From Amphibalanus amphitrite (taxonomy: Eukaryota): 64,000 nucleotides of DNA. Position 1 is the first letter of the stretch; the number at the start of each line of letters is the position of its first letter. The position numbers and the translations under genes are program-made. Where the stretch lies: positions 601,297 through 665,296 of the forward strand of contig NW_024881521.1 in the NCBI RefSeq assembly GCF_019059575.1, written 5' to 3'. The notes under the pieces were generated by a model. The model ran no database searches, had not been told where the DNA came from, and saw only the letters and a program-made list of their open reading frames with translations. Below are positions 8,650 through 63,462 of the stretch, piece by piece.

Positions 8650-9705
8650 GTGAGTCAACGGGTCTGTCGGTGATACATTGATCAATGGGTGTTGCTGATT
8701 TTCCCGGCCTCTTCTTTTTCATCAGTCATTTTCCGTGAGTCAGTCCGTTGTTCATTTAGTCGGGTAGTTATTTCAGCCAACCGGTGAGCTAGCCTGCCAG
8801 TCATTCACCGTGTCATTTACCTACCCATTCCCGGCGGCCCAACCCCACCCCTCCATATTCTGGCTGTTGGAGCCTGTTGTGGCTGGGGTTATGTAGACAG
8901 TATACACACTGTCGTTGCGGCGTTCGGTCAGTTGCCGGGCGGTGTCCGGTGGTAGTATTTCCTTTACCACCCTGTTGTGTGCAGTGTGGGCCGATGGCCT
9001 GTCGGCCCGCGATACGGCGTCGGGCGCCGTGTTACCATCCGGGCCGCCATGGCGACTGGGACGGGGTGTGGGGGCCGCCGACCATCCGATTCCCGAGACA
9101 AGGATGTGAGATGGGGTGGCCGCCTGGCGCACACGGCGTGGGCTTATCTTCACTGACGGGCTGTGTGCCAGACGCTATGTTGTGTAGCTCGCAACAGAAC
9201 AAAACGTGATTGATTAGTAAACGTAATGATAACATCCTCCTCTCCGTCTTCGCTTCTTCCTGGGCTCATTTCGCTGTGAAACTACCGCAGTATTTGGTTG
9301 TCTAACACACCATCTCCTCTCCCTTCCTCAGCTGGGCGTGGTGTGTCTGGAGCAGGGCCTCCAGGCCCAGGGACTGGAGTTGTATGCTCTAACACCCCTC
9401 CCTCCCCCTTCTCTCCTCTCTGTTACAGCTGGGCGTGGTGTGTCTGGAGCAGGGCCTCCAGGCCCAGGAACTGGAGTTGCGTACTCTAACACCCCTCCCC
9501 CTCTCTCCTCTGTTACAGCTGGGCGTGGTGTGTCTGGAGCAGGGCCTCCAGGCCGAGGAACTGGAGTTGTATGCTCTAACACCCCTCCCTCCCCCTTCTC
9601 TCCTCTCTGTTACAGCTGGGCGTGGTGTGTCTGGAGCAGGGCCTCCAGGCCCAGGAACTGGAGTTGCGTACTCTAACACCCCTCCCCCGCTCTCCTCTAT
9701 TGCAG

Positions 9706-9987
9706 CTGGGCGTGGTGTGTCTGGAGCAGGGCCTCCAGGCCGAGGCGCAGGCCTACCTGGACAGAGCGCTCGAGCACGACCCCGACCACCAGCAGGCGCT
9801 GCTCAACTCGGCGGTGATTATCCAGGAGGAGGGGCCCCCGGAGCGGCGGCCGCTCGCCTACCAGCGGCTCCACCGGCTCATCGCGCTCCGACCGTCGGCC
9901 GTCGGACTCGACAGGGTCTACTTCAACCTGGGCATGCTGGCCATGGACGACCACGACCTGGTGCCCGCCGAGGCCTGGCTCAAAAAG
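9706..9987 (+). CDS. TMTC-family exon, TPRs (LGVVCLEQGLQAEAQAYLDRALEHDPDHQQALLNSAVIIQEEGPPERRPLAYQRLHRLIALRPSAVGLDRVYFNLGMLAMDDHDLVPAEAWLKK)
   Basis: ttgcag acceptor at 9700-9705, aag|gtgagt donor; this is the last of five tandem acceptor+exon-start copies, and which copy is used in vivo cannot be told from sequence. Confidence 0.65.
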
Positions 9988-12535: not shown

Positions 12536-12667
12536 CGTACAGACGAACTTGAGCAGGTCGACGGCGTCGACACCCACAGAAGCGGCGTCTCCCCAGAAGA
12601 ACCGTAGCACCGTGACACCCTTCACCACCTCCTCCTCTTTACGCAGGTAGCCGGCGCGACAAAACTC
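12536..12667 (-). CDS. NSMCE3: NSMCE3/MAGE-like exon (EFCRAGYLRKEEEVVKGVTVLRFFWGDAASVGVDAVDLLKFVCT)
   Basis: matches MAGE homology domain C-terminus (..YLEYRQVP..YEFLWGPRA..KMKVLEFVAK pattern); gacag acceptor, acg|gtgaga donor. Confidence 0.75.
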
Positions 12668-13031
12668 CTGTCGACGTCAGAAGCCAGTTAGTCAAATCAT
12701 AGCCGGCGCGACAGAAATCCTGTCGACGTTAGACAAACTACACATTATAGCTGTCGCGACAAAACTCCTGCCAGCGTCAAACACGAAAGATCATAGCCGG
12801 CGTGACAGAACTCCAGTAACACCTCAGTGAGGCGTTCAGCTGCCGTGACAACAGTCATATCAGTCACTTATCAGTCATCAGTCACACCAGTCATTACTCG
12901 TCAGCACGGTCCGCCACCCCTGGTAAAAACCTCGGTCATACGTTCCTGACTAGCCTAATGCACTTCTCACCGGCCTCATAATTAATGGTAGTGTGAAGAG
13001 GCTGACTAGCCTCACAGCCCCATTGACTTAC

Positions 13032-29756: not shown

Positions 29757-29942
29757 CATCACTGACCTGCTGCGGCTTTCCGAGCTTGTAGTGCGCCTCG
29801 GTCTCGTCTCTGGTGAGCAGGACGCAGTTCCAAGGCGTCCAGGGCTGTTCCACGTCCCAGCGGCAGAGCAGCAGCTCATAGAGGTCCGGATCGGCGCTCA
29901 GGCAGGACTGGCCGCCCCACAGCGACAGCACCAGGTGACGGA
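29757..29942 (-). CDS. IQ-motif gene exon (ESDFRHLVLSLWGGQSCLSADPDLYELLLCRWDVEQPWTPWNCVLLTRDETEAHYKLGKPQQ)
   Basis: tgttacag acceptor, cag|gtcagt donor; ORF 29614..29961. Confidence 0.65.
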
Positions 29943-30361
29943 AATCAGACTCCTGTAACACATGAAAGACAGAGGTGGTATGTCAGACAGGACTGACCGC
30001 CCCACAGCGACAGCACCAGGTGACGGAAGTCAGACTCCTGTAACACACAGACAGAGGTGGTATGTCAGACAGGACTGGCCGCCCCACAGCGACAGCACCA
30101 GGTGGCGGAAGTCAGACTCCTGTCACAGAAACAAATACATGTGTCAGACTCATTAACCTGTCCCATACCCAGATCATAAGTCACACGTAGGCCTCGCACA
30201 CACATGGGTAGCGAAAGTCGTACACCTTTCTCACACCGTATGTAGCGAGGAAAGACTTGCCAGTGACCAAACCCCACGCACGCTCCCCGTACTTCGACTG
30301 CAGGCTGTCCTCTCTCACATATACTAGAGTACCACTGACCCGTCAGTAATCCTCCGCTGAC

Positions 30362-32904: not shown

Positions 32905-35450
32905 GGGGCCTATTGTTGTTGTTGTTGTTGTTCCCCCTGGGACCTCCTTACGGAGGACCATAGCCGAGAGGCTCCCTATGGCGAAGGTAGCCGGCCTCCA
33001 AGGCAGCCACCAGGTCGGCGTCCCGCAGCCGCGACGGGTCGACGTGAATGCTGCCAGTTAGCCGCAGGCGGGCGCCAGCGAGGGCCGGGCAGCGGAGCAA
33101 CACGTGCTCCGGCACGTCCGCCTCTTCCCGGCACACGGCGCAGAGCGCCGTGGGGCACCGCTTATCGGGGCACTGCAGGCATGCCACGGAGGGGTGGCGG
33201 CCGATCCGGTGCAGGTATTGGAGCGAGCGGCCCCAGTGGCCCACCCTCCACTGGTGCACCGAGATGGCGGCCTCTCGGTCCTCTCCGGGGATGGGGAGCG
33301 GCAGGGTGCTCCCGAAGATAGCCTTGAAAAAGGAGTCGGGCCAGTTTTCGCGCCACTGACGTGTGGTCGTCCGATGAACTGCCCGTGTCAGGGGCCGAGC
33401 GTCCGAGGGCACGGCGCCCTGGGGCAGGGTGGCCGCTTGCTTGGCCAGGGCGTCAGCGCGCTCGTTCTCCGCCAGCCCGCAGTGAGCAGGGACCCACTGC
33501 AGGGTCACCTGCCGGCGCTCGGCAATGTCCAGCAGCGTCCTCCAGATCGCCGCGCCGAAAGTGGAGGTCTGGGCGGCCGCTCCCGCGCTGAGGAGGCTCA
33601 GGGCGGCTCGTGAGTCAGAGCACGCCACCAGCGGGGCGGGGGACGGCTCATCCCGGACCCGCTCCAGCGCCGCCCTCAGGGCGAACAGCTCCGCACGGGT
33701 GCTGGAGCAGAGGTCTCCCGCCACCACCTCAACCTCGAGAGTCTCCCCCGACGCGGTAAAGATGATGGCGCCGCCCCCTCGCCTCGCCTGACCCCAGCGT
33801 CCGCAGAGCCGTCGGACCAAATCCACGTGGCCTGGGCTGGGAGCGCCGCCAGGTGCTGCCGCGCGGCCTCTCGTCGCGTCTCGTTGGAGGAGGCTCGACG
33901 ACCGCCGGGTCCCACGTCCAGATTGAAGGCGATCGGGCGGCAGGTTGTCCACGGGAGGAGGGGAACCTCGAGGCGCGGCTCCACCGTCACTCCCTCGGCG
34001 CCCGCCTCGATCAGCGCCGATCGCCCCAGTTGTCGCCAGCCGGTGGTAGACCGCAGTCGAGTGGGTGGGTCGGCCTCCGCGACGCGGCGAAGAGGGTCGT
34101 CCTCCGGCAGGGCGAGCGCTCGGCAGAGCGTTCGCGCGGCCAGCGTCTTCCTGGTGGACCATGCTGAAGGGATGCCAGCCTCGGCCAGCAGGGGATCCCT
34201 GGGGGTGGACCTTGGGCATCCGGTCACCACCCGGGCTGCCGCCAGCAGCTCGCGCTCCACCAGCTGAACGTGTGACGGGGACGCGGCCGGGAGCCAGGCA
34301 CCCGCTGCGTATTCAAGGGCTCCCCGGACATACCCGTTCGCGACTGTCCTGAGCTGCGCCTCGCGGAGACCCCAGGCCCGGCCGGTCATCCTCCGCAGCT
34401 GTGCCGTCCGCGGCCGGACCTTCCGCCGCAGCAGAGAGTCGCAGTGGTCTTTAAAGTGTAGAAGTCTGTCGAAGGTCACCCCCAGAAGATGTAGGCTGGT
34501 GCCACCGGTGACCTGCGTGCCGTTCGCCAGGAGTTGCACGCCGCGCTCGTCCCTGCTCCGCTGAGTCAGCAGCAGCGCCTGGGTCTTCTGTCCGGCGATG
34601 GACATCTTCCAGTGCCTTGCCCATCGGGCCAGGGCGTCGGCCGACTTCTGGGCGCGAGCCACCGCAAGCTCTACGGTGGCTCCAGCGCTCAGTGTGGCCC
34701 TGTCGTCCGCATACATCAGGACGTCCGTGCGGTCCGAGGCGTTCCGCAGGGTCTCGATAAGGTCCGCCGCCCAGAGCGTGTAGATGGTCGGTGCCAGGAC
34801 CGAGCCCTGCGGCAGGCCCGCGCGGAACACGCGCTCGCTGCTGTGCGCGCCGTTGACCTCTACGCGGGCCCGCCTGCCGCGAAGGAACCGGAATTTCCAG
34901 GTCGCGAGACATCTGGGGAGGAGCTTGAGGAGCTTCAGGTGCAACATCCGGTGATCGATCGTGTCATAGGCACGGGAGAAGTCGAACGCCAGGAGGACAA
35001 AGCGGTCCGCCGTCACGCCATCCTCCGGGCCTCGTCTCGGCTTGGGGCGATTCCAGCCATCTTGAACCGTTTGGACCAAGCGGGCCAGACTGTCCTCCGC
35101 CGACCTCCCGCGGCGGAACCCGACCTGTTCGGGGGGCACCAGTCGGTCTCGCTCGATGAGGTAGGTCGTCCGGGCCGCGATCATCCGCTCCGCTAGCTTG
35201 GCGATGTGACTCGTGAGCGCGATCGGGCGGTAGCTGCCCACTTGTTTGGGGTCTTTGCCGGCCTTAAAGATAGGGATGATGGTCGCCCGTCGCCATGAGG
35301 CGGGCGTCTCGAGGTTGGACCACGATCTGTTGATGAGTGCCAGAAGGGTCCGGTAGGCCGTCGGTCCGAAGTGCCGCAGGTGTTCGGTGCATACCCGGTC
35401 CGGTCCTGGCGCCTTCTTCGTCCCGAGGTGTCGGATTTGGTCGTCGGATT
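32905..35450 (-). mobile_element. 5'-truncated, frameshifted RNase-H-containing non-LTR retrotransposon (I/R1/LOA-type): RT, RNase H, C-terminal CCHC finger
   Basis: rc ORF 33676..35676: RT motifs (GPD.., FADD-equivalent YADDRA..); rc ORF 32948..34219: RNase H (..WVPAHCGLAENERADALAK) and C..C..H..C finger; (CAA)n 3' tail at 32918-32936; ~70% GC, unlike the host introns. Confidence 0.85.
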
Positions 35451-35883
35451 GGGGCCTGTCTGTGGGAGAGACACACAGCCCAACAAACGACGCCAGTACT
35501 TCTGCAGAACGATCGCCTGCAGAGACAGCGGGAGCATAGTCAGACGCGGGGAGACAGTCACACGGGCCAGCCAGCGACGCCAGTGCTTGTGAGGAACGAC
35601 TACCTGTGAGGGCGAGGGGAAGACTGTTGGTGCGTGTGGGGGGGGGGGGGGGGCACGGCATATCAGCGAGAGGCACAGATTGTCGCTGATATGGACCAGA
35701 CCACTGTCAAGTGTCAAAATAAATTATTTTTACAAGCTAAGCGAAATATGTGAGGGTACTTGATTGTTTATGAATGGTTAAACATAGCGAAGCTAGTTAT
35801 AATTTCCAAAATCCCACACCATGGCTGTAATACTGTTTGTGAGCATGCCGCCAGTGCAAGACCCAGCGCGGCGCCGCTCTCAC

Positions 35884-41243: not shown

Positions 41244-44200
41244 CAGTAGGCGGAACTATGGTCAAGCGTACCCATTTTCGGGAACGCATTTTCGTTCCCA
41301 TGTTTGGGAACGATAAACCCAAATATGGGAACGCCATGTAGGCATTATTTAAAACAAGAAAAAGAACCGTTAAATGACGTCCAAAAAAAAAAAAAAACGA
41401 TCGTGAACCGCCTGATATTTGTCCCAATATTGTTGGGAAAGAGTTTGATATTGTAAGGCCCATCGTAGTTTCAAATCGTTCCCCTATTTCTAAAGCAGTC
41501 CATCATCCGGGCCGCGAGCCCAAATTTGGGAACGCTCTCGTACACTGGCGCTGCAAGCGTTCCTTATTATGGGAACGGCGTACCCAAAATTGGGAACGAT
41601 TTCACCGACGCCTTTCAGGGGCTCTTTTCATTAACAAGCATCACGTCCAACGCCGCAAATTATTGTTAACGCAACAATCATCAGATGACCTTTCCGGCAA
41701 GACCGTCGCATGTTACGCCCGGTCTTCTGCGCTTTTATTCCCGTCGATCTCGCAGCGGGCACGCCCCCCTCTGCAGGATTACGTAGTTCACAACGCTCAG
41801 CGATGTTCAACAAGGTCTTCCATACCTATATCCACCGTCCGCGCCGAGGGTGGAGACATGTCAAGCACCTGTCTGTTTATCACCGATAGTTGACGAGCAC
41901 AAGGAAGTATCCAAAAATGGGAACGCTGAATATGTTACACCCTCAAAACACCTAGTCCCAATGAAAATCTAGTTTTTTCCTTTCTTGATGGGTGTAAGTG
42001 GCAAAAGGCCTGGTAGGATGGGCACGAGGAATGATCGAGATCAGCATAAAAATTATAAATAAGCCACACAAAGCGACCTATATAAGAGAAATTCCCCCAA
42101 AACGATCGTGCTTAGAAACACGGAAGACAAAAATCACGCTCATGACGCTCCTTATAAAACAACGCTTAAAGGGACTGTCCCACCTTAACATTAGATTTGA
42201 GTTGAGATAGCCATCTTGATGGACGTTCTTTGAAAATCAGTGCCGTGAAAACCGTTTCTCCAGCAATTACTTCATCGCAAAGAAATTTGAGTTTGATTTT
42301 GACATCTGTGCAAATAAGTGCCACAATGTATTGGTATAGGCACTTAAATCTGATGACGTCATCAGGCTTTCGAACGTCCGTTAAATGTTTGACTAAAACG
42401 TTTTGTAGCACGCGGTGGTATATGCTGCGTTGCGCGCAACAAATGCCGCACTTTTAAATAAAGTCGCTAGGAACAGCGGAGATCCCAAAAAGTAAACAAA
42501 AGTAAAAGTCTAATATCTTCAAAACCGGTGAATATTTTTCGGTGAAATTTGGTAGATATTCGTTTTCGCTCTTTCTGAACCGAGCGACATCACTTTCATG
42601 CCAATTCATAAACTTTTTTAAAGGTGGGAGGGTCCCTTTAACAGCTAGCATCCAAATAAAATATGTCTTTCCGGGATGATAAAATACAGCTGAATAATTT
42701 TAAACCACTGAAACCGAGTTTACAACAGTAGTTCGGTAAAATCACTGACGTTCCACGCGGTCGTGCGCCCCGACACCAAAAGTCAACAATATTACCTCGG
42801 GACTGTCCGCGTGTTCGCTTGCATATGTCAGCATCTGGTGTCGCTAGTATGAAACTTCATAACCAGGCGAAAATTATTGTACTTGACCTCAAAATGTAAA
42901 AAACGCTTCATTTTCCTTAAAATTGCAAGTTAAATGTAGTATAACCCATGTTTTCACCATTCCGTCATTTCAAAAAATCATTAAAAATATCATTCGACGG
43001 TCAATTTCCTTGTGCAACGGTCAGATTAAAGATAATTTTATAGAGACTTAGTACGTAACCGGACAAATCTTCGTATGGCAATTCTTCGTCGCGCAATTCC
43101 TCGTCCGCATTTCTTCGTCCGCAAATCTTCGTCGGCGCATTTATTCGTGTCGCATAACTTCGTCTCGCATTTCTTCGTAAGCGCAAATATTCGTAGCGCA
43201 TTTTTTCGTATCCGCATTTCTTCGTACGCGCATTTCTTCGTCAAGCATTTTTTCGTCCACGCATTTCTTCGTCTACGCAAATCTTCGTCCGCATTTCTTC
43301 GTCCACGCAAATCTTCGTCTGCGCATATCTTCGTCCGCAAATCTTCGTCCCCGCAAATCTTCGTCCGCAAATCTTCGTCCGCATTTTTTCGTCCACGCAT
43401 TTCTTCGTCTACGCAAATCTTCGTCCGCATTTCTTCGTCCAGCAAATCTTCGTCCCGGCAAATCTTCGTCCGCAAATCTTCGTCCGCCAAACTTCGTCCG
43501 CAAATCTTCGTCCGCAAATCTTCGTCCGCATTTTTCGTCCACGCATTTCTTCGTCCACGCAAATCTTCGTCCGCAAATCTTTGTCTGCGCATATTTTCGT
43601 CCGCAAACCTTTGTCTCCGCTATCTTCGTCTCCGCAAACATTCGTCCACAAATGTGGTTCAATAAAACCATGAAGAAATATCAGACCATCAAGTGATTGA
43701 CGAATTTAATGCATGGAATGGATGATCGAAACTTTTGAAGTCAGGTAGATGGGGTCTGTCCGGTGAAGCTATTGTATTTGGGAGCCGAGAATTGAAACAT
43801 TCCATATCATGTGTCCCGGACATTCTTTTTTCGCGGTCGATGAATGACAATACAATCTCTTGTACCCTCGCCGGCATAGGCGGCGGAACGGGGAGGGCAC
43901 CGGGGCACCGTTCCCCTCTTTAATTTTGGCCTTTTAACAGTAGCCCTATGGGCGTTGCATGGAAAGAATGGGACTAAAAGTCGGCAGTGCCGTGCCCCCC
44001 CCCCCCCCCTAATTGAATGTGTTCCGCCGCTACTGCTCGCCGGACCTATTTGTTTTCTACATATACGCCGGCCGAGGGGGGCGGGTACGACCCCCCCCCC
44101 CCCCCATCGCCGTTTCGCCACTGGTGGAGCTAGCGCGTCGCGGAAAAAACGAGCGTGTGCGCCGTTACGAGACGCAGAGGTTAATACCCGATTTTAAGGC

Positions 44201-45925
44201 CTTCTAGGTCAGGGGTCGGCTTACAGCCCGCGGGCCGGATCCGGCCAGGAGGGTGACGGTTGGATCCGGCCCGCGACCATCTGACGTCCGGCCCGCGCAA
44301 GTTTTGTCTAGAAGTAGAATTAGACAAAAACACCCGCAAATGGTGTTTATAAACTCATGAAGTGTGCGAAGGAAGAACTATTGTGCCAAAGCACATTTAA
44401 GTCACTTTTATATCGGAGTCGATTTCTGAAGGAACCGCGGGCCGGAACACGATGTAAGTCGATGATACCAGCCGCGGGCCGGACGTCAGATGGTCGCGGG
44501 CCGGATCGAACCGTCACCCTCCTGGCCGGATCCGGCCCGCGGGCCGTAAGCCGACCCCTGACCTAGAAGGCCTTAAAATCGGGTATTAATCTCTGCGTCT
44601 CGTAACGGCGCACACGCTCGTTTTTTTCCGCGACGCGCTAGCTCCACCAGTGGCGAAACGGCGATGGGGGGAAGGGGGGGGGGGTCGTGCCCGCCCCCCC
44701 CCCTCGGCCGGCGTATATGTAGAAAACAAATAGGTCCGGCGACGGCGAGCAGTAGCGGCGGAACACATTCAATTAGGGGGGGGGGGGGCTTGGCACTGCC
44801 GACTTTTAGTCCCATTCTTTCCATGCAACGCCCATAGGGCTACTGTTAAAAGGCCAAATTAAAGAGGGGAACGGTGCCCCGGTGCCCTCCCCGTTCCGCC
44901 GCCTATGCCGGCGAGGGTACAAGAGATTGTATTGTCATTCATCGACCGCGAAAAAAGAATGTCCGGGACACAAATGATATGGAATGTTTCAATTCTCGGC
45001 TCCCAAATACAATAGCTTCACCTGACAGACCTCATCTACCTGACTTCAAAAGTTTCGATCATCCATTCCATGCATTAAATTCGTCAATCACTTGATGGTC
45101 TGATATTTCTTCATGGTTTTATTGAACCACATTTGTGGACGAATGTTTGCGGAGACGAAGATAGCGGAGACAAAGGTTTGCGGACGAAAATATGCGCAGA
45201 CAAAGATTTGCGGACGAAGATTTGCGTGGACGAAGAAATGCGTGGACGAAAAATGCGGACGAAGATTTGCAGACGAAGATTTGCGGACGAAGTTTTGCGG
45301 ACGAAGATTTGCGGACGAAGATTTGCCGGGACGAAGATTTGCGTGGACGAAGAAATGCGGACGAAGATTTGCGTAGACGAAGAAATGCGTGGACGAAAAA
45401 ATGTGGACGAAGATTTGCGGACGAAGATTTGCGGGGACGAAGATTTGCGGACGAAGATATGCGCAGACGAAGATTTGCGTGGACGAAGAAATGCGGACGA
45501 AGATTTGCGTAGACGAAGAAATGCGTGGACGAAAAAATGCTTGACGAAGAAATGCGCGTACGAAGAAATGCGGATACGAAAAAATGCGCTACGAATATTT
45601 GCGCTTACTAAGAAATGCGAGACGAAGTTATGCGACACGAATAAATGCGCCGACGAAGATTTGCGGACGAAGAAATGCGGACGAAGAATTGCGCGACGAA
45701 GAAATGCCATACGAAGATTTGTCCTGGAATCGACTTAGTAGATACTTAAATTAGCGTGCACTTTTTTGAGACGTGATGCACTAATGAGTTTTAGTGGGCG
45801 AACGGCCGAAAAATTAACTTCCGTTCTCATAAATGGGAACGCCCGTTCCCATATTTGGGAACTCCGTTCCCAAAAATGGGAACGTTCCTATATTTGGGTA
45901 CTCATGACCATAGTTCCACCTACTG
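41244..45925. mobile_element. ~4.7 kb non-autonomous TIR DNA transposon; ~30-bp TIR CAGTAGG(C/T)GGAACTATGGTCA(A/T)G(C/A)GTACC and GGGAACG subterminal direct/inverted repeats
   Basis: left terminus 41244-41273 is the reverse complement of right terminus 45897-45925; multiple T(T/A)GGGAACG motifs at 41285-41620 and 45815-45890; no transposase ORF. Confidence 0.7.
43061..45735. repeat. Foldback-like long palindrome (~2.7 kb, arms ~1.3 kb, centre ~44390); arms consist of a minisatellite of ~12-13 bp units (cgcaaatcttcgtc / cgcatttcttcgtc); centre is itself a GC-rich hairpin
   Basis: 43061-44200 is the reverse complement of 44570-45735; the RKSSSA/ADEDLRTKICG 'ORFs' on both strands are translation artefacts of the tandem array. 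Confidence 0.85.
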
Positions 45926-49257: not shown

Positions 49258-49560
49258 CCTGATCAGGGCTGCGGAGTCGATGGATTTTCGGCGACTCCGA
49301 CTCCGACTCCGGCTTTCAAAAACCAGCTCCGACTCCGACTCCGACTCCGGGCAGAATTGTCAACTCCGACCGACTCCAACTCCCAACTCCGACTCTGCAG
49401 ACCTAGCAGGGCTGCGGAGTCGACAGATTTTCGGTGACTCCGACTCCGGCTCGGGTTTCTAAAATCGACTCCGACTCCGACTCCGACTCTGGTCACAACT
49501 GTCGACTCCGACCGACTCCGACTCCGACTCCGACTCCGCAGCCCTGCATATGATCATGAC
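49258..49560. repeat. two tandem ~150-bp units, each bounded by inverted CAGGGCTGCGGAGTCG / CGACTCCGCAGCCCTG termini and filled with (GACTCC)n hexamer repeats
   Basis: direct reading; hairpin-forming minisatellite or MITE pair. Confidence 0.8.
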
Positions 49561-52443: not shown

Positions 52444-52715
52444 GTCGGTGGCAGGGCGACGTGGATCTCGCGAGATGCTGCATTACGTACCGGTAGATAG
52501 CTAGTGACGATTTTCATCGGCTGTTCCTAGTTCTTTTCGAAGATGTTCTGCCTATAACAGAGCTTCGGTCAGTTTGCTATAGAAAGCCCAACTCAGGTCA
52601 TTTTTCATTTGCGACTCGTCTGTATCAAATGTGATGCCAGTCTGTTGTGATTACGTTTTTGCACCTATCATAATATGTCCTTACGATGTCTTTCTATGCC
52701 CGCGTTTTCCACCAG

Positions 52716-54703: not shown

Positions 54704-54854
54704 GTCACGGCAAATCGACTCAGTCGGCGCTGTCCGCCATCACCAGTCTGAAGAAGCTGTGCAACCACCCGGACCTGATCTACGAGAAGGTCACTGAGCC
54801 GGGCAGTGAGCTGCGCCATCTGCTGCAGCTCTATCCAGACGGACACTCGACAAA
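54704..54854 (+). CDS. RAD54L: RAD54L exon (GHGKSTQSALSAITSLKKLCNHPDLIYEKVTEPGSELRHLLQLYPDGHST-)
   Basis: matches ..SSITSLKKLCNHPALIYDK..; cgccag acceptor, aa|gtgagt donor. Confidence 0.85.
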
Positions 54855-55396
54855 GTGAGTCGGGGACTCGGGAGGCAGAGCTAACTCAGACAGTCAGACG
54901 GACACTCGACAGAGTGAGTTAGAGAGTCAAGACGAACTCAGACAGATACTCCGTGAGTTTGTCAGGGATGACAGTCCTGCCCAGACGGACTCGCGATATT
55001 AGAGGCTGTCGGAAACTAGCAAGGTCCGTATAGGTTACAAAGTAGGGGCATCCCGTGAAGCAACTGAATGACTAACCTGCAAACACCACCACAGTATATC
55101 ATTCTCCCCTCCTGTGTCCACCAGGCGTGTCCGCGTCCACTCGTATCTGAAATTCCGCAGTCCGCACCCGCCTGTCCGCCAGACGAGTCCGTCCGGAGCT
55201 GTCCGGCAGCTGGGTGTCTGTGTCAATATCTACCCGCCCCTGTCCTCCAGGAGAGTCCGTCCGGACCTGTCCGGCAGGGTGTCTTTGTCCTCTAATATCT
55301 ACCCGCCCCTGTCCTCCAGGCGAGTCCGTCCGGAGTTGTCCGGCAGGGTGTCTGTGTCTTCTGATGTGTCTAATACCCCCTCCCTGTGTCCACTAG

Positions 55397-55595
55397 ACGC
55401 GTCCGTCCGGAGCTCTCCGGCAAGGTGTCGGTGCTGGACTACCTGCTGGCCCTGGTGAAGACGCAGACCAGCGACAAGGTGGTGCTCGTCTCCAACTACA
55501 CGCAGACACTCGACCTGTTCGAGACCCTCTGCCAGATGCGCAGCTACTGCTTCGTCCGGCTCGACGGCAGCATGACCATCAAAAAACGCGCCAAG
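55397..55595 (+). CDS. RAD54L: RAD54L exon ([67 protein letters not shown])
   Basis: matches [65 protein letters not shown]; acceptor (cactag) is the last of four tandem copies. Confidence 0.85.
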
Positions 55596-59714: not shown

Positions 59715-62700
59715 TTATGTCATTGCTCTCCCTCGTCCGACACTCCAGCGGACCAACTCACCGTCCGCAGTGTAGTACGAAGGCATCCGCTGAGCAGCAC
59801 TCGCTGCCGCACTACTCCTCTCTGGCGCGGCTGGGGAGCCGTCCACAATCCGTCGCTGCTGCTGCTGCTGCGGTGCCGGCCGCGCCGCCGCCGGGGCTGC
59901 CGGCCGGCCGCCGAGCGCCGCACTCAGCGCTGCACTGAGCACATCCCTCGCCGGCTCACCAGCCGCGTACAGTCCCGACTGACCGCTGGTTGGGGCCGAG
60001 TCCTGACGGGGCAGCGAGCTGCGGCGGCCCGCCGACCCGGCAGATACACCCGGGTAGTGGGGCTGCGCGCGGCCTGCCGCCTGGCTCAGCTGGGCCAGGG
60101 GGTCGGTCCGGGAGGCGGCCGAATCGTGACGAGACACGGCGTGACCGAGCAGGTCGTGACGTGACGACGCCGAGCCGAGATCTCGAGACAGATGACCAAG
60201 GGCGGGGTCATGTCTGGAGGTGGGCTGACTCAGGGAGTCACGCCGGCCGCCGGACTGACTCGGGAGCGACTCTGGGCGGAGAGTCGACTGACCGAACGAG
60301 TCCCGCCGTGAGCTGAGTCCCAGTGGTGGCTCCTGTCGTGGCGAGCCATGTGAGAGCTGAGAGTCGGAGCGGGAAAGGCGACTCTCCTGGCGGGGACTCT
60401 GGTGAGAGAGCAGGTGGGGGTCCTGACGGGAGCTCTGATGGGTGAGATGGGGGTCCTGGCGGAGTCCCTGGTGAGAAAGGTGGGGCTCCTGCCGAGGACT
60501 GGGGTGATTCAAATGGGAATCCTGCCGAGGGCTGGGATGATTCAAATGATGATCTTGGCGAGGACTAGGATGATTCAAATGATGGTCCTGACGGGGACTA
60601 GGGTGATTCATATGGGAATCCTGGCGGGGACTGGGATGGTTCAAATGATGATCTTGCCGGGGACTCGGGTGATTCAAGTGGGGATCCTGGCGGGGACTGG
60701 GCTGGTTCATGTAGGACTCCTGCCGTGGACTCGGATGGCCCGCATGAGGCTCTTGCCGCGGACTCCTCTGAATAAGCTGCGGCTCCTGCCGCGGACTGCG
60801 ATGGCTGAAATGCGTCTCTTGGCGAGCACTGGGCTGGCTAAAATGCGACTCCTGCCGTGCACTGGGTTGGCTGAAGTGTGGCTCCTGCCGCGGACTTGGC
60901 TGGCTGAAGTGAGGTTCTTGTCGCGGGCTCGGCTGACTGAAATGAGGTTCTTGCCTCGGACTGGGCTGGTTGAAGTGCGGTTCTTGCCTGGGGCTGGGCT
61001 GACTGAAGGTGGAGTCCCGCCGCCCGCTTTGTTGGCTGACCGCCTGCTCATGTCTCGAGCCGAACCCACCCGTCAGCTGGGGGTCCGCGCGGCCCACGCC
61101 GTGCTGCGCGAACACCGGCGGGCGGTGGTGTGGCGAGGCCGGTGACGGCGGGTTGGGCGCCGGCGGCGGCGGCGCCGGGTCAGCGCGCGGCGCAAAGTGC
61201 GCCATCAGACCCTCGGCCTGCTCAATCCTGGAGCGGGGCGCCGGATCGGCGCGGGCCCCGCCGCCACCCGGCCGGTGTCCGCCGCCGTACGGGTCCGGAC
61301 TGAAGGCTGAGCGGGATACAGCCGGCTGCTGCTGCTGCGGCTGCTGACGGGTCGGCTGCTGAGGCGCCGAGCCGCCCTCAAACGCTGCCAGAACCGCAGA
61401 ACGGGACGGCGCAAAACCGCTCTGAAGATTGGTGGCCACAGATCGTGCCGGCGATACTGGCTGCATCTCCGGCGAGAACGGCGACGAATGGGTGCCACTG
61501 AACGGCGAGCCCACTGACGTGCCCTCCGGGGAGAAAATGTCCGCCTGGCGCGCCGCCAGCTGGAGAATGCTGCTGCGTGCCGGCGGAGAGGCTGCCTCCT
61601 TCAGCTGGTTGAAGCTCATCAGGTCCTTGATCACACAGTCGAGCTCCTCGTTCAGCTGGCCACCGCCACCAGACAGGTCCAGACCCTGGTCGGCGGGCGG
61701 CTCGGGCGGCGGCGGGGGCGGCTGGGGCGGGGGCGGCGGCGGGGGCGGCGGCTCGGCGGGCGGCTCTGGCACCGGTGGCTGCCGGCGGGAGTCTCCGCCG
61801 CCCCGACCGTCCGTCAGACTGGAGCGCCGGCCGGCTCTGGCGGTCTCAGCCGGCTCCGACCAGCACTCACCACTGGGGCGGCGCTCCCCGTCCGTCAGCG
61901 GCGAGAAGAAACTGTTTGTGATACTGTCCGTGCTCGCCTGCCGACCGCTCAGGATCGCATCCATGGCGGCCGCTCCCACACTGTCCGCACTGGCTGTCCG
62001 GGCCCGCTCGGGCGCCTCGTCCCTGACACCACTGTCCTCCCCGCCCCCTCTGCTGATCACCGAGCCGCCGCGGTCGCCCCCGACAGTCCGTCCCCCTATC
62101 ACCTCCTCCTCCCAGGGTGCTGATACACGGCCGTCACCGGCGCTGTCCAGCGCCGCCAGCCGCTCCGTCAGACTGTCCGTGCTCGGCCGGCGCACAGACA
62201 GGTCGGCCGCAGCCGTGGTCGGAGTGCCAGACTCCGAGCTGGTGCGTCGCCGGCCCACCGTCGGCTCCGGGCTCACACACAGCGAGAAGTCTGCCTCGCT
62301 GCCACCCATGATGGAAGCCACCGCGTCGTTCATTTCGGCTTCATTGATCTCCCGGAAGCGTTTCTTTTTCTCTGCCTCCGCGGCGGCGGTTGCAGCTGCG
62401 GCTGCTGTCGCTGCCTCGTCGTCCGTCGGCTCGACCCCGGCCGCAGCCGTCGGCTGGCTCTGAGATCTGCCATACAGGTGGATCTTCTTGGGGCTGTGGT
62501 GACGGTCGGCGGCGGGCTGCTGCGGCGCGGCCGGCGCGCGAGGCTCGGCGGCCCGCAGCTGCTCCGGGGACGGCAGCAGCGGCGGCCCGCCGGCGCCACT
62601 GAGACTGGCGCGGCGCGGTGGCGACCGATCGGCGGGGGTGGCGGCGGGAGCGGCAGATGAGGCGTTAGCAGCGGCAGCGGCGGCGGAGGCATTAGCAGCG

Positions 62701-63249
62701 GCAGCCGCCTCCTGCTGTCGTTGCTCGTGAGAACGCTGAGCCGAGCTGCTCATCCCCTGCCGCAGTTTCTCCAGCTCCAGCTGAAATCCTGACGTCACCG
62801 CCGGAGTTTCCACCGGAGGTACTGTTGCGGCAGGGGGCGCCGCCGCGGCCACCGGCGCAGCGGGCACGGCGCTCGGGGCAGAGGTGACGGCAGGACTGGC
62901 TGCAGCCGGATCCCTGGCCGGCGCGGCGGGAGGGGTGGCAGCGGGCGCAGAAGGCGCCGCCGCAGCCGCCGGCGGGGTCCCACCGTTCTGGAGCCGGTGT
63001 TTCGGGCTGGTAGGCCGGGTCGTCTGATGAGCGGCCTGATGGGCGGCTGGAGGTGCAGAGCTCCGCTCAGATCCGCCGCTTGAGGGATGCGAGTGCTTTG
63101 GTCGCTTCTCGCCTGGTTTGCGGCCGGGCCCCGAAGGCTTTGAGCTATCAGACTCCGGCTTTGGACTGCGCTTCTTCTTCATCGTCTTTCGTTGTAAGTT
63201 GGTGGCGTCATCAAAGGCAGTCTGGAGCCGTTTCAACTCCGCCTTATAC
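59715..63249 (-). CDS. 3.5-kb terminal coding exon of a Pro/Ser/Ala-rich low-complexity protein (~1178 aa from this exon); contains tandem 11-aa coding repeats (QPSPRQEPHFS x~7, then NHPSPRQDHHL x~7)
   Basis: rc ORF 59715..63263 with no stop across 3.5 kb of 70% GC sequence; upstream tttgtctgtttacag acceptor at 63250-63264 implies the exon begins at about 63249 (phase 2); stop at 59715-17. Confidence 0.7.
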
Positions 63250-63462
63250 CTGTAAACAGACAAACACGGAACCCGTCAACTAATGAAGAATCATCAGGCA
63301 AAACATGCCCATGTGCGATATCATCAACATTCGCGACGCGTAGTGTTTCCCTCTCGTTCTCTTCTTCCCCTTCCCTCTAACTACCTGACGACCTCAGTAC
63401 TGCTGTCCTCCGGTACCCGCGCCCTCCCTCACTCACTCTCTCCAATCTAGGCATCCACCCAC

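Follow-up and report, generated by a model that had tools for sequence, protein, structure and literature searches.

Tandem copies of both splice junctions within one RAD54L intron of the barnacle Amphibalanus amphitrite, and their probable origin by local duplication

An intron that carries, at each of its ends, several copies of its own splice junction raises the question of how such copies arose and which of the sites can still yield the protein. The intron considered here occupies positions 54855-55396 of a 64-kb stretch of the Amphibalanus amphitrite genome (contig NW_024881521.1; the whole stretch of 64,000 nt is hereafter called the window, and its G+C content was 52.6%) and belongs to a gene of the RAD54L type. 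The initial annotation had reported degenerate copies of the exon end and its GTGAGT donor downstream of the authentic donor. This was borne out by alignment scores against shuffled sequences and by an exact 17-mer match, but it described only the donor side, which is half of the structure; an array at the acceptor end of the same intron had been missed. The explanation favoured here, and considered probable, is that segments straddling the junctions were duplicated locally and in tandem, through slippage or unequal exchange, and are tolerated as splicing at the outermost sites removes the copies.

The RAD54L-type gene occupies about 51.4 to 57.2 kb of the + strand and was recognised as 12 collinear exons by tblastn with human RAD54L as the query. 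A model with GT-AG introns gave one uninterrupted reading frame ending in ...FVFHQRSHDQLVTP and the stop codon. With 542 nt, the intron is the longest of the 10 RAD54L introns modelled, most of its neighbours having 250-270 nt, and the extra units roughly double its length. In the same intact-frame exon model, the donor at 52444-52449 reads AAG/GTCGGT and not GTRAGT (a slash marks the splice junction here and below); it may be an unusual but tolerated donor. The parts of the 542-nt intron and of the adjoining exons are the following:

54704..54854, + strand: RAD54L exon ending in ...LLQLYPDGHSTK; tblastn against human RAD54L and uninterrupted open reading frame (ORF); last 19-25 nt are the exonic part of the authentic donor-side unit.
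54836..54894, + strand: donor unit 1, authentic, CAGACGGACACTCGACAAA/GTGAGTCGGGG...; cleavage between 54854 and 54855; sole donor avoiding an immediate in-frame TGA (AAG TGA).
54895..54938, + strand: donor unit 2, decoy, CAGACGGACACTCGACAGA/GTGAGTTAGAG, GTGAGT intact; 34 nt at 85%, exact 17-mer, shuffle test and alignment.
54939..54979, + strand: donor unit 3, degenerate, CAGACAGATACTCC/GTGAGTTTG, GTGAGT intact; p = 0.036, alignment.
54980..55012, + strand: donor unit 4, CCCAGACGGACTCGCGATATTAGAGG, exon-like part retained, donor gone; 3 mismatches to the 17-mer, shuffle test and alignment.
55013..55102, + strand: central intron part without repeats; none found by repeat search, blastn self-comparison or diagonal scan.
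55103..55170, + strand: acceptor unit 0, degenerate pseudo-acceptor cctgtgtccaccag/GCGTGTCCGCGTCC; 29 nt at 86% and 31 nt at 81% to later units.
55171..55384, + strand: acceptor units 1-3 (68, 69 and 77 nt), with pyrimidine tract and CAG/RCGAGTCCGTCCGGAGCTGTCCGGCAGGGTGTCT; Tandem Repeats Finder (TRF), blastn and alignment.
55385..55433, + strand: authentic acceptor unit, ...tgtgtccactag/ACGCGTCCGTCCGGAGCTCTCCGGCAAGGTGTCGGTG; cleavage between 55396 and 55397; blastn, alignment and exon model.
55397..55595, + strand: next RAD54L exon, (K)...; tblastn and exon model.

The authentic donor junction was located at 54836-54865; the junction sequence given by the initial annotation is correct, and only its position, 54827-54860, was slightly off. 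In copy 2 (54895-54928), the exact 17-mer recurs at an offset of +59 nt, and a 34-nt stretch that includes GTGAGT shows 85% identity; the local-alignment score of this copy was 45, against a shuffle null of 11.3 +/- 2.1, and none of 2000 shuffles scored as high. The exon part of copy 3 (54939-54961) scored 16 (p = 0.036), with GTGAGT still intact. Copy 4 (CCCAGACGGACTCGCGATATTAG, 54980-55002) scored 22, again with 0 of 2000 shuffles as high, and has lost GTGAGT. About three downstream copies had been claimed: copy 2 stands, copy 3 is marginal when taken alone, and copy 4 is significant but without a donor. The donor units are arranged head to tail, with start-to-start spacings of 59, 44 and 43 nt. 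When up to 3 mismatches were allowed, the 17-mer occurred 3 times in the 64 kb, in all cases within the donor array, with 0.18 occurrences expected. Both TRF (minimum score 30) and the blastn self-comparison miss this array, and for this reason an ungapped diagonal scan was written (30-nt window, at least 25 matches, offsets 20-300), which recovers it and gave no such array in shuffled windows.

At the acceptor end of the intron, 3-4 tandem copies of about 69 nt, each comprising the acceptor and the exon start, were found at 55103-55384. They were detected by TRF (period 69, 2.8 copies, 86% identity, at 55171-55362) and by the blastn self-comparison (205 nt, 81%, E = 4e-50), and lie head to tail with offsets of 68, 69 and 77 nt. 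Units 1-3 each copy the first 37 nt of the next exon, their model being the real acceptor ...tctaataccccctccctgtgtccactag/ACGCGTCCGTCCGGAGCTCTCCGGCAAGGTGTCGGTG, and the repeat similarity ends 37 nt into that exon. The exon-derived part of the copies shows a synonymous difference from the real exon, CGA in the copies and CGC in the exon. A candidate CTAAT branch site is present upstream of the AG of unit 3 and of the authentic AG, and is degraded (gtcaatatc) before the AG of unit 2. The acceptor-side array is younger and clearer than the donor-side array. The pseudo-acceptors read CAG/ACGAGT, CAG/GAGAGT and CAG/GCGAGT; none has the GT of a recursive splice site (YAG/GTRAGT), and the intron has only 542 nt.

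To compare the introns of the gene, each junction was aligned with the interior of its own intron for the 10 RAD54L introns. The 542-nt intron alone stands out, with scores of 45 at the donor and 50 at the acceptor; the nulls were about 14-16, with maxima of 22-27, and the other introns (9 of 9) fell within them.

The reading frame restricts which of these sites can be productive. The exon upstream of the intron ends in phase 2 (ACA AA/) and read-through gives AAG TGA, so that every downstream decoy donor meets an immediate stop codon. Use of a pseudo-acceptor would add 77, 146 or 214 nt, none of them divisible by 3; acceptor units 1-3 share one frame, because the 69-nt period equals 23 codons, and this frame ends at the TGA 55456-55458 (ORF 55114-55458). 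The first donor (D1, 54854) and the last acceptor (A4, 55397) are the sole pair of sites giving an open RAD54L frame, ...YPDGHSTK/..., and their product aligned without gaps and matched the ortholog length in comparison with human and crab RAD54L. Judged from the sequence, the outermost donor and the outermost acceptor are presumably those used, and the pseudo-sites would be silent or their products degraded. Provided that this is the case, the protein is unchanged, because the copies leave with the intron.

According to the proposed course of events, a segment of about 59 nt, comprising the last 19-25 nt or so of the exon, GTGAGT and about 35 nt of the intron, would have been duplicated head to tail at the 5' end, leaving today 1 authentic and 3 decaying units. 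The segment duplicated at the 3' end would have measured about 69 nt, consisting of about 32 nt of the intron with pyrimidine tract and AG, plus 37 nt of the next exon; this would have left 1 authentic and 3-4 upstream units, and the CTAAT branch-site-like motif would be included in the best preserved of them. The extra units would be spliced out with the intron via the outermost donor and acceptor. As the copied units hold intronic splice signals, the intron was in place before the copying. The generating process would be replication slippage or unequal exchange, and the copies are best regarded as selectively neutral or slightly deleterious by-products. Since the same architecture is present at other genes, a general mutational process is suggested, rather than a device specific to RAD54L.

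Several points weigh against this reading. Decoy donors 2 and 3 keep a perfect GTGAGT, and the pseudo-acceptors (CAG/G after a good pyrimidine tract) seem no weaker than the authentic TAG/A, so that pure neutrality needs a rule of site selection; among the acceptors, the upstream decoys would be preferred under a first-come-first-served choice or if scanning set out from the branch point. Furthermore, arrays at both ends of one intron are a coincidence under independence, and the roughly 3-fold excess of junction-spanning arrays over a uniform model, presented below, is unexplained by a purely random neutral process.

To assess the presence of similar arrays at other genes, the diagonal scan was applied to the window, where 15 local direct-repeat loci were obtained, and none in shuffles. 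Six of the 15 span splice junctions; the others correspond to simple repeats, to parts of transposons or to repeats within coding sequence. The comparison also covered four other A. amphitrite loci (L007-L010, from assembly GCA_009805615.1), which had been picked as gene models with fragments of long interspersed nuclear elements (LINEs), unrelated to arrays. The arrays at exon boundaries are the following:

54831-55000: RAD54L, donor array; diagonal scan and shuffle test.
55103-55433: RAD54L, acceptor array; TRF and blastn.
1907-2004, + strand: transmembrane/TPR-type gene, acceptor, 2 copies; ctcag/ACTGGCG... at 66-nt offset.
9303-9745, + strand: TPR exon of the same transmembrane/TPR-type gene, acceptor, 5 copies of a unit of about 97 nt (ctctaac...ctgttacag/CTGGGCGTGGTGTGTCTGGAGCAGGGCCTCCAGGCC...).
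29893-30136, - strand: IQUB exon, acceptor, 3 copies, ttacag/GAGTCTGACTTCCGTCACCTGGTGCTGTCGCTGTGGGGCGG..., period 82-85 nt, 93% identity.
12645-12820, - strand: upstream of a putative exon, acceptor, about 3.5 older copies, ...gacgtcgacag/GAGTTTTGTCGCGCCGGCTA, period 48-52 nt, 72-78%.
L007 5036-5186: XPO4, donor, 2.3 copies.
L008 2310-2496: HPS1, acceptor, 4-5 copies.
L008 2567-2733: HPS1, donor, 2 copies.
L008 30260-30553: HPS1, acceptor, 4 copies.
L008 30682-30808: HPS1, stop codon / 3' untranslated region, 2 copies.
L009 26151-26556: SPAG6, donor minisatellite, about 14 copies.
L010 16989-17101: RNF13, acceptor, 2 copies, RING-domain exon.
L010 18070-18351: RNF13, whole mini-exon, 4 copies.
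L010 28649-29125: CFAP161-like gene, acceptor minisatellite, about 20 copies.

In the array at 1907-2004, the upstream copy carries an in-frame TGA. The last copy at 9303-9745 continues into the TPR exon (Pfam TPR_2, E = 9e-7), and the last copy at 29893-30136 runs into the exon of the IQUB ortholog (E = 1e-13 to PDB chains 9fqr and 8j07). The putative exon beside the array at 12645-12820 (about 12.6 kb) reads EFCRAGYLRKEEEVVKGVTVLRFFWGD.../GTGAGA and gave no identification in Pfam and PDB searches. In total, 13 junction-spanning arrays (9 acceptor, 4 donor) were counted in about 190 kb, so that at least 11 occur besides the two of RAD54L, and several of them hold many complete decoy sites (about 14 donors in SPAG6, about 20 acceptors in the CFAP161-like gene); purely intronic or intergenic arrays are also present (L009 30317, L010 23243 and L010 27438). 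The annotated models P0172 and P0214 (HPS1, RNF13) translate decoy copies as coding sequence.

Nine of the 18 in-gene arrays span a junction, compared with 3.2 expected (P about 0.001, with generous junction counts), in a small and rough sample of 5 genes, one of which was ascertained via the RAD54L finding itself; this approximately 3-fold excess is a lead, not a result. That tandem duplications of A. amphitrite are preferentially born or retained at exon edges is conceivable, although we are inclined to doubt it. If true genome-wide, it would point to mutation targeted to exon edges, for example by repair or recombination tracts ending where a conserved exon meets a hyper-polymorphic intron; alternatively, to a strict outermost-site rule of barnacle spliceosomes, to which even perfect upstream decoy acceptors would be invisible, a behaviour unexpected for 3' splice sites.

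The arrays might also be the footprint of the gain or sliding of the intron, which would have been born from a coding tandem duplication followed by intronization (Rogers / Hellsten). The position of the intron made this attractive. In turbot, the anemone Actinostola and the ctenophore Bolinopsis, a phase-1 intron lies inside the Gly codon of LSG^K, whereas the barnacle coding sequence is continuous at G^K and has its own intron 23 nt upstream, in phase 2; the RAD54L intron is thus off the ancestral metazoan position, which lies 23 nt downstream and at which the window has unbroken coding sequence. The barnacle and crab position on the one hand, and that of turbot, Actinostola and Bolinopsis on the other, form a 'nearby intron pair' as defined by Lehmann et al. 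2010 (PMC2891723), two alternative positions no more than 32 nt apart in orthologs and never found together, the distance here being 23 nt. The idea was rejected since the RAD54L copy of the crab Petrolisthes manimaculis (L006) has the barnacle position: its acceptor, gtgtgacag/ACATTTGCATCCAGAGCTGTCAGGGAAG, lies at the same position and phase, with no intron at G^K, and the position therefore goes back at least to the common ancestor of barnacles and decapods. With this acceptor (gtgtgacag/ACATTTGCATCCAGAG) at the identical place, the relocation predates the barnacle-decapod split. Moreover, the copies include intronic signals (GTGAGT, pyrimidine tract and AG), where purely exonic copies are predicted; exon-end copies lie near the 5' end and exon-start copies near the 3' end, the reverse of the Rogers layout; and there is no AG/GT proto-splice site, the insertion point being AAA/ACG and the spliced junction ACAAA/ACGCG. 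Identity among the repeat units, in sequence free of constraint, is 85-90%. In Balanus glandula, introns have a nucleotide diversity of about 6.5% (bioRxiv 10.64898/2026.04.27.721231), and if that of A. amphitrite is similar, the divergence of the repeats would be only about twice the within-species diversity. The repeats are much younger than the intron, which they did not create; the intron shift is unrelated in age to them. Intron birth by duplication is largely refuted, and is scarcely credible as the source of the arrays.

Local duplication of junctions in a pre-existing intron has also to be weighed against explanations that give the copies a role or a foreign origin. The decoys could be functional, either diverting pre-mRNA to frameshifted, degraded transcripts with premature stops that tune RAD54L (regulated unproductive splicing) or acting as splicing enhancers that recruit U1 or U2AF close to the true sites. 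It is in keeping with this that donors 2 and 3 keep GTGAGT and the pseudo-acceptors keep pyrimidine tract and CAG despite 10-15% divergence elsewhere, that every decoy choice leads to a premature stop, and that junction arrays are over-represented in this genome; however, the architecture is also found in the unrelated TPR-repeat gene, IQUB, XPO4, HPS1, SPAG6 and RNF13, a pattern more easily reconciled with a mutational process than with regulation specific to one gene, decay is evident in donor copy 4 and acceptor unit 0, and the pseudo-sites of the F7 precedent are functional but silent (PMC1557585), so that a function is unlikely. Pairing between the two arrays, in the pre-mRNA or as a DNA hairpin, was considered because the right units (CGAGTCCGTCCGG) resemble the reverse complement of the left ones (CCAGACGGAC...TCG); it would loop out the intron and bring the authentic sites together, or the inverted repeat would stall replication and in this way bring about duplications at both arms. 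The inverted matches I1, I2 and I5-I8 measure 11-15 nt and are 87-92% complementary, the best left-right duplex is better than 99% of dinucleotide shuffles, the two arrays are located at opposite ends of one intron, and the minimum free energy of the whole intron is -225.8 kcal/mol (z = -2.06, based on 20 shuffles only). Nevertheless, the energy gain of left-right cofolding is no better than that of shuffles (p = 0.45), a purine-rich left half and a pyrimidine-rich right half favour generic pairing, the core complementarity, which links two coding segments, extends to about 9 of 10 nt only and was noticed post hoc, and other genes have one-sided arrays that lack a partner. A structural role of the left-right complementarity is unproven, and an origin through pairing seems very unlikely. 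Finally, the repeats could represent a transposable element of the foldback type or a miniature inverted-repeat transposable element (MITE), with inverted subterminal repeats and inserted in the intron, or an artefact of assembly. The inverted left-right similarity, the foldback-like element at 43054-45721 and LINE copies in the window, and a highly heterozygous genome, by analogy with the pi of about 5% in Balanus glandula (bioRxiv 10.64898/2026.04.27.721231), speak in favour. Against this, the units copy the adjoining exons (17-nt exact match on the donor side, 37 nt on the acceptor side), they differ by 10-15% with indels, unlike assembly stutter, and analogous arrays occur at other genes in contigs of assembly GCA_009805615.1; besides, a search of the rest of the window, L005 and L007-L010 gave no further copy of the intron (best match 20 nt, E = 0.31; about 180 kb of barnacle DNA in all, of which about 120 kb is A. 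amphitrite sequence from outside the window). Such an origin is highly improbable.

Two other candidates were set aside. The derivation of left and right units from one ancestral exon-spanning unit was dropped, as the similarity between GTGAGTCGGGG... and RCGAGTCCGTCC... is too weak. An 11/11 complementary match between GATATTAGAGG and CCTCTAATATC (54995 and 55289) had a BLAST E of 0.27 and was taken as chance.

In the first protein search, the closest RAD54L was 83% identical (L005, ENA ERZ25070917 contig). Positions 974-1535 of this contig form an intronless stretch with 88% nucleotide identity to the barnacle RAD54L coding sequence, which runs across 3 exon-exon junctions and starts downstream of the repeat-bearing junction; 3 nt are deleted in it, and some of its substitutions are odd. 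The stretch is probably a processed retrocopy from a related barnacle in the metagenome sample. A protein search with ORFs from the RAD54L intron and the antisense strand, a chimeric query, gave no match, and metagenome contigs scanned for exact 26-mers likewise yielded none.

Other elements were observed in the window. Two arrays of about 600 nt, at 43054-43653 and 45131-45721, are composed of a 14-16/30-nt unit, CAAATCTTCGTCCG, and its reverse complement; they are inverted and about 1.5 kb apart, which is the anatomy of a foldback-type transposable element. ORFs of a jockey-like LINE with RVT_1 and RNase H domains occupy 32948-35676 on the - strand; the copies show 97-98% nucleotide identity to copies in annotated A. 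amphitrite genes (L009, L010), and the reverse-transcriptase ORF at 33676-35676 (-) is 96-98% identical to Amphibalanus amphitrite proteins. Over 2.3 kb, the window has 98% nucleotide identity to A. amphitrite contigs; by these matches alone it would be assigned to this barnacle or to a very close relative. At 49264-49545, a duplicated element of 142 nt with many (CGACTC)n motifs is 94% identical to L009 12322-12607, and is therefore a dispersed repeat, not a local duplication. An ORF of 1182 amino acids at 59715-63263 (-), in DNA with 68% G+C and with internal repeats of 33/66/99 nt (60373-61039), had a single weak resemblance in Pfam, TFIIA-like (E = 8e-4), which fell short of the curated cut-off. 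Scans of the 64-kb window for Rfam families at the gathering threshold and for tRNAs gave no matches.

For RAD54L itself, the arrays are probably inconsequential, the protein being unchanged. The intron is a natural experiment in splice-site choice, with 3 equally good GTGAGT donors, 4-5 complete acceptors and one productive pairing. Donor-side arrays in human F7 served to show 5'-to-3' scanning for the first donor (PMC1557585); acceptor-side arrays pose the opposite problem, as the productive site is the last one. If the excess of junction arrays is confirmed in this hyper-polymorphic barnacle genome, it will bear on the growth of introns and on the origin and survival of tandem duplications at exon edges. 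Junction arrays are also a practical hazard for gene annotation, as in the HPS1 and RNF13 models.

With respect to known systems, the copying of splice sites by internal gene duplications is well documented, and cases that create new introns or exons were reportedly described by Gao and Lynch in 2009. RAD54L resembles those cases in its small in-gene tandem duplications, which include exon-intron boundaries and leave latent splice sites; it differs from them in gaining no intron or exon, an existing intron being enlarged. Tandem arrays are also said to be a source of alternatively spliced introns in human genes, according to work of Zhuo and colleagues from 2007. Common to both are repeated units each with a 5'-splice-site-like sequence; those arrays are reported to give alternative introns within the repeats, whereas in RAD54L only one pair of sites fits the reading frame.

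A further model derives new introns from an exonic AGGT segment that is duplicated in tandem (Hellsten et al. 2011, PMC3265369; Lehmann et al. 2010, PMC2891723; PMC3443670). The Rogers model and RAD54L share a tandem duplication near a splice junction and an mRNA restored by splicing across the duplicate, but RAD54L is without AG/GT, its copies carry intronic signals, and the intron, an old one, has the opposite layout.

The closest precedent is the 37-bp variable number tandem repeat in intervening sequence 7 (IVS7) of human F7, the first monomer of which spans the exon 7/IVS7 boundary (Borensztajn et al. 2006, PMC1557585). Its identical pseudo-5' sites are functional but silent, the most upstream site being chosen by 5'-to-3' scanning, and similar arrays are known in IFI6 (6-16) intron 2, CBS IVS13, LMNB2 and PDGF intron 4 (PMC1557585). 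An almost exact structural analogue of the F7 array is that of SPAG6 in L009, with about 14 units of 26-30 nt. RAD54L differs from F7 in the greater length (about 59 nt), smaller number (4) and much stronger divergence of its units, the F7 pseudo-sites being identical in sequence, and in the array at the acceptor side of the same intron. No description of acceptor-side arrays of this kind was found, which, with incomplete coverage of the literature, is weak evidence of novelty. As in F7, the donor array of RAD54L starts inside the exon, with the authentic 5' site followed by reiterated pseudo-5' sites in the intron, and, as in arrays of the F7 type, the terminal monomers hold the authentic junctions, here on both the donor and the acceptor side. 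By its sequence organisation, the donor-side architecture of RAD54L thus appears to be of an already known type, that of the F7 IVS7 minisatellite.

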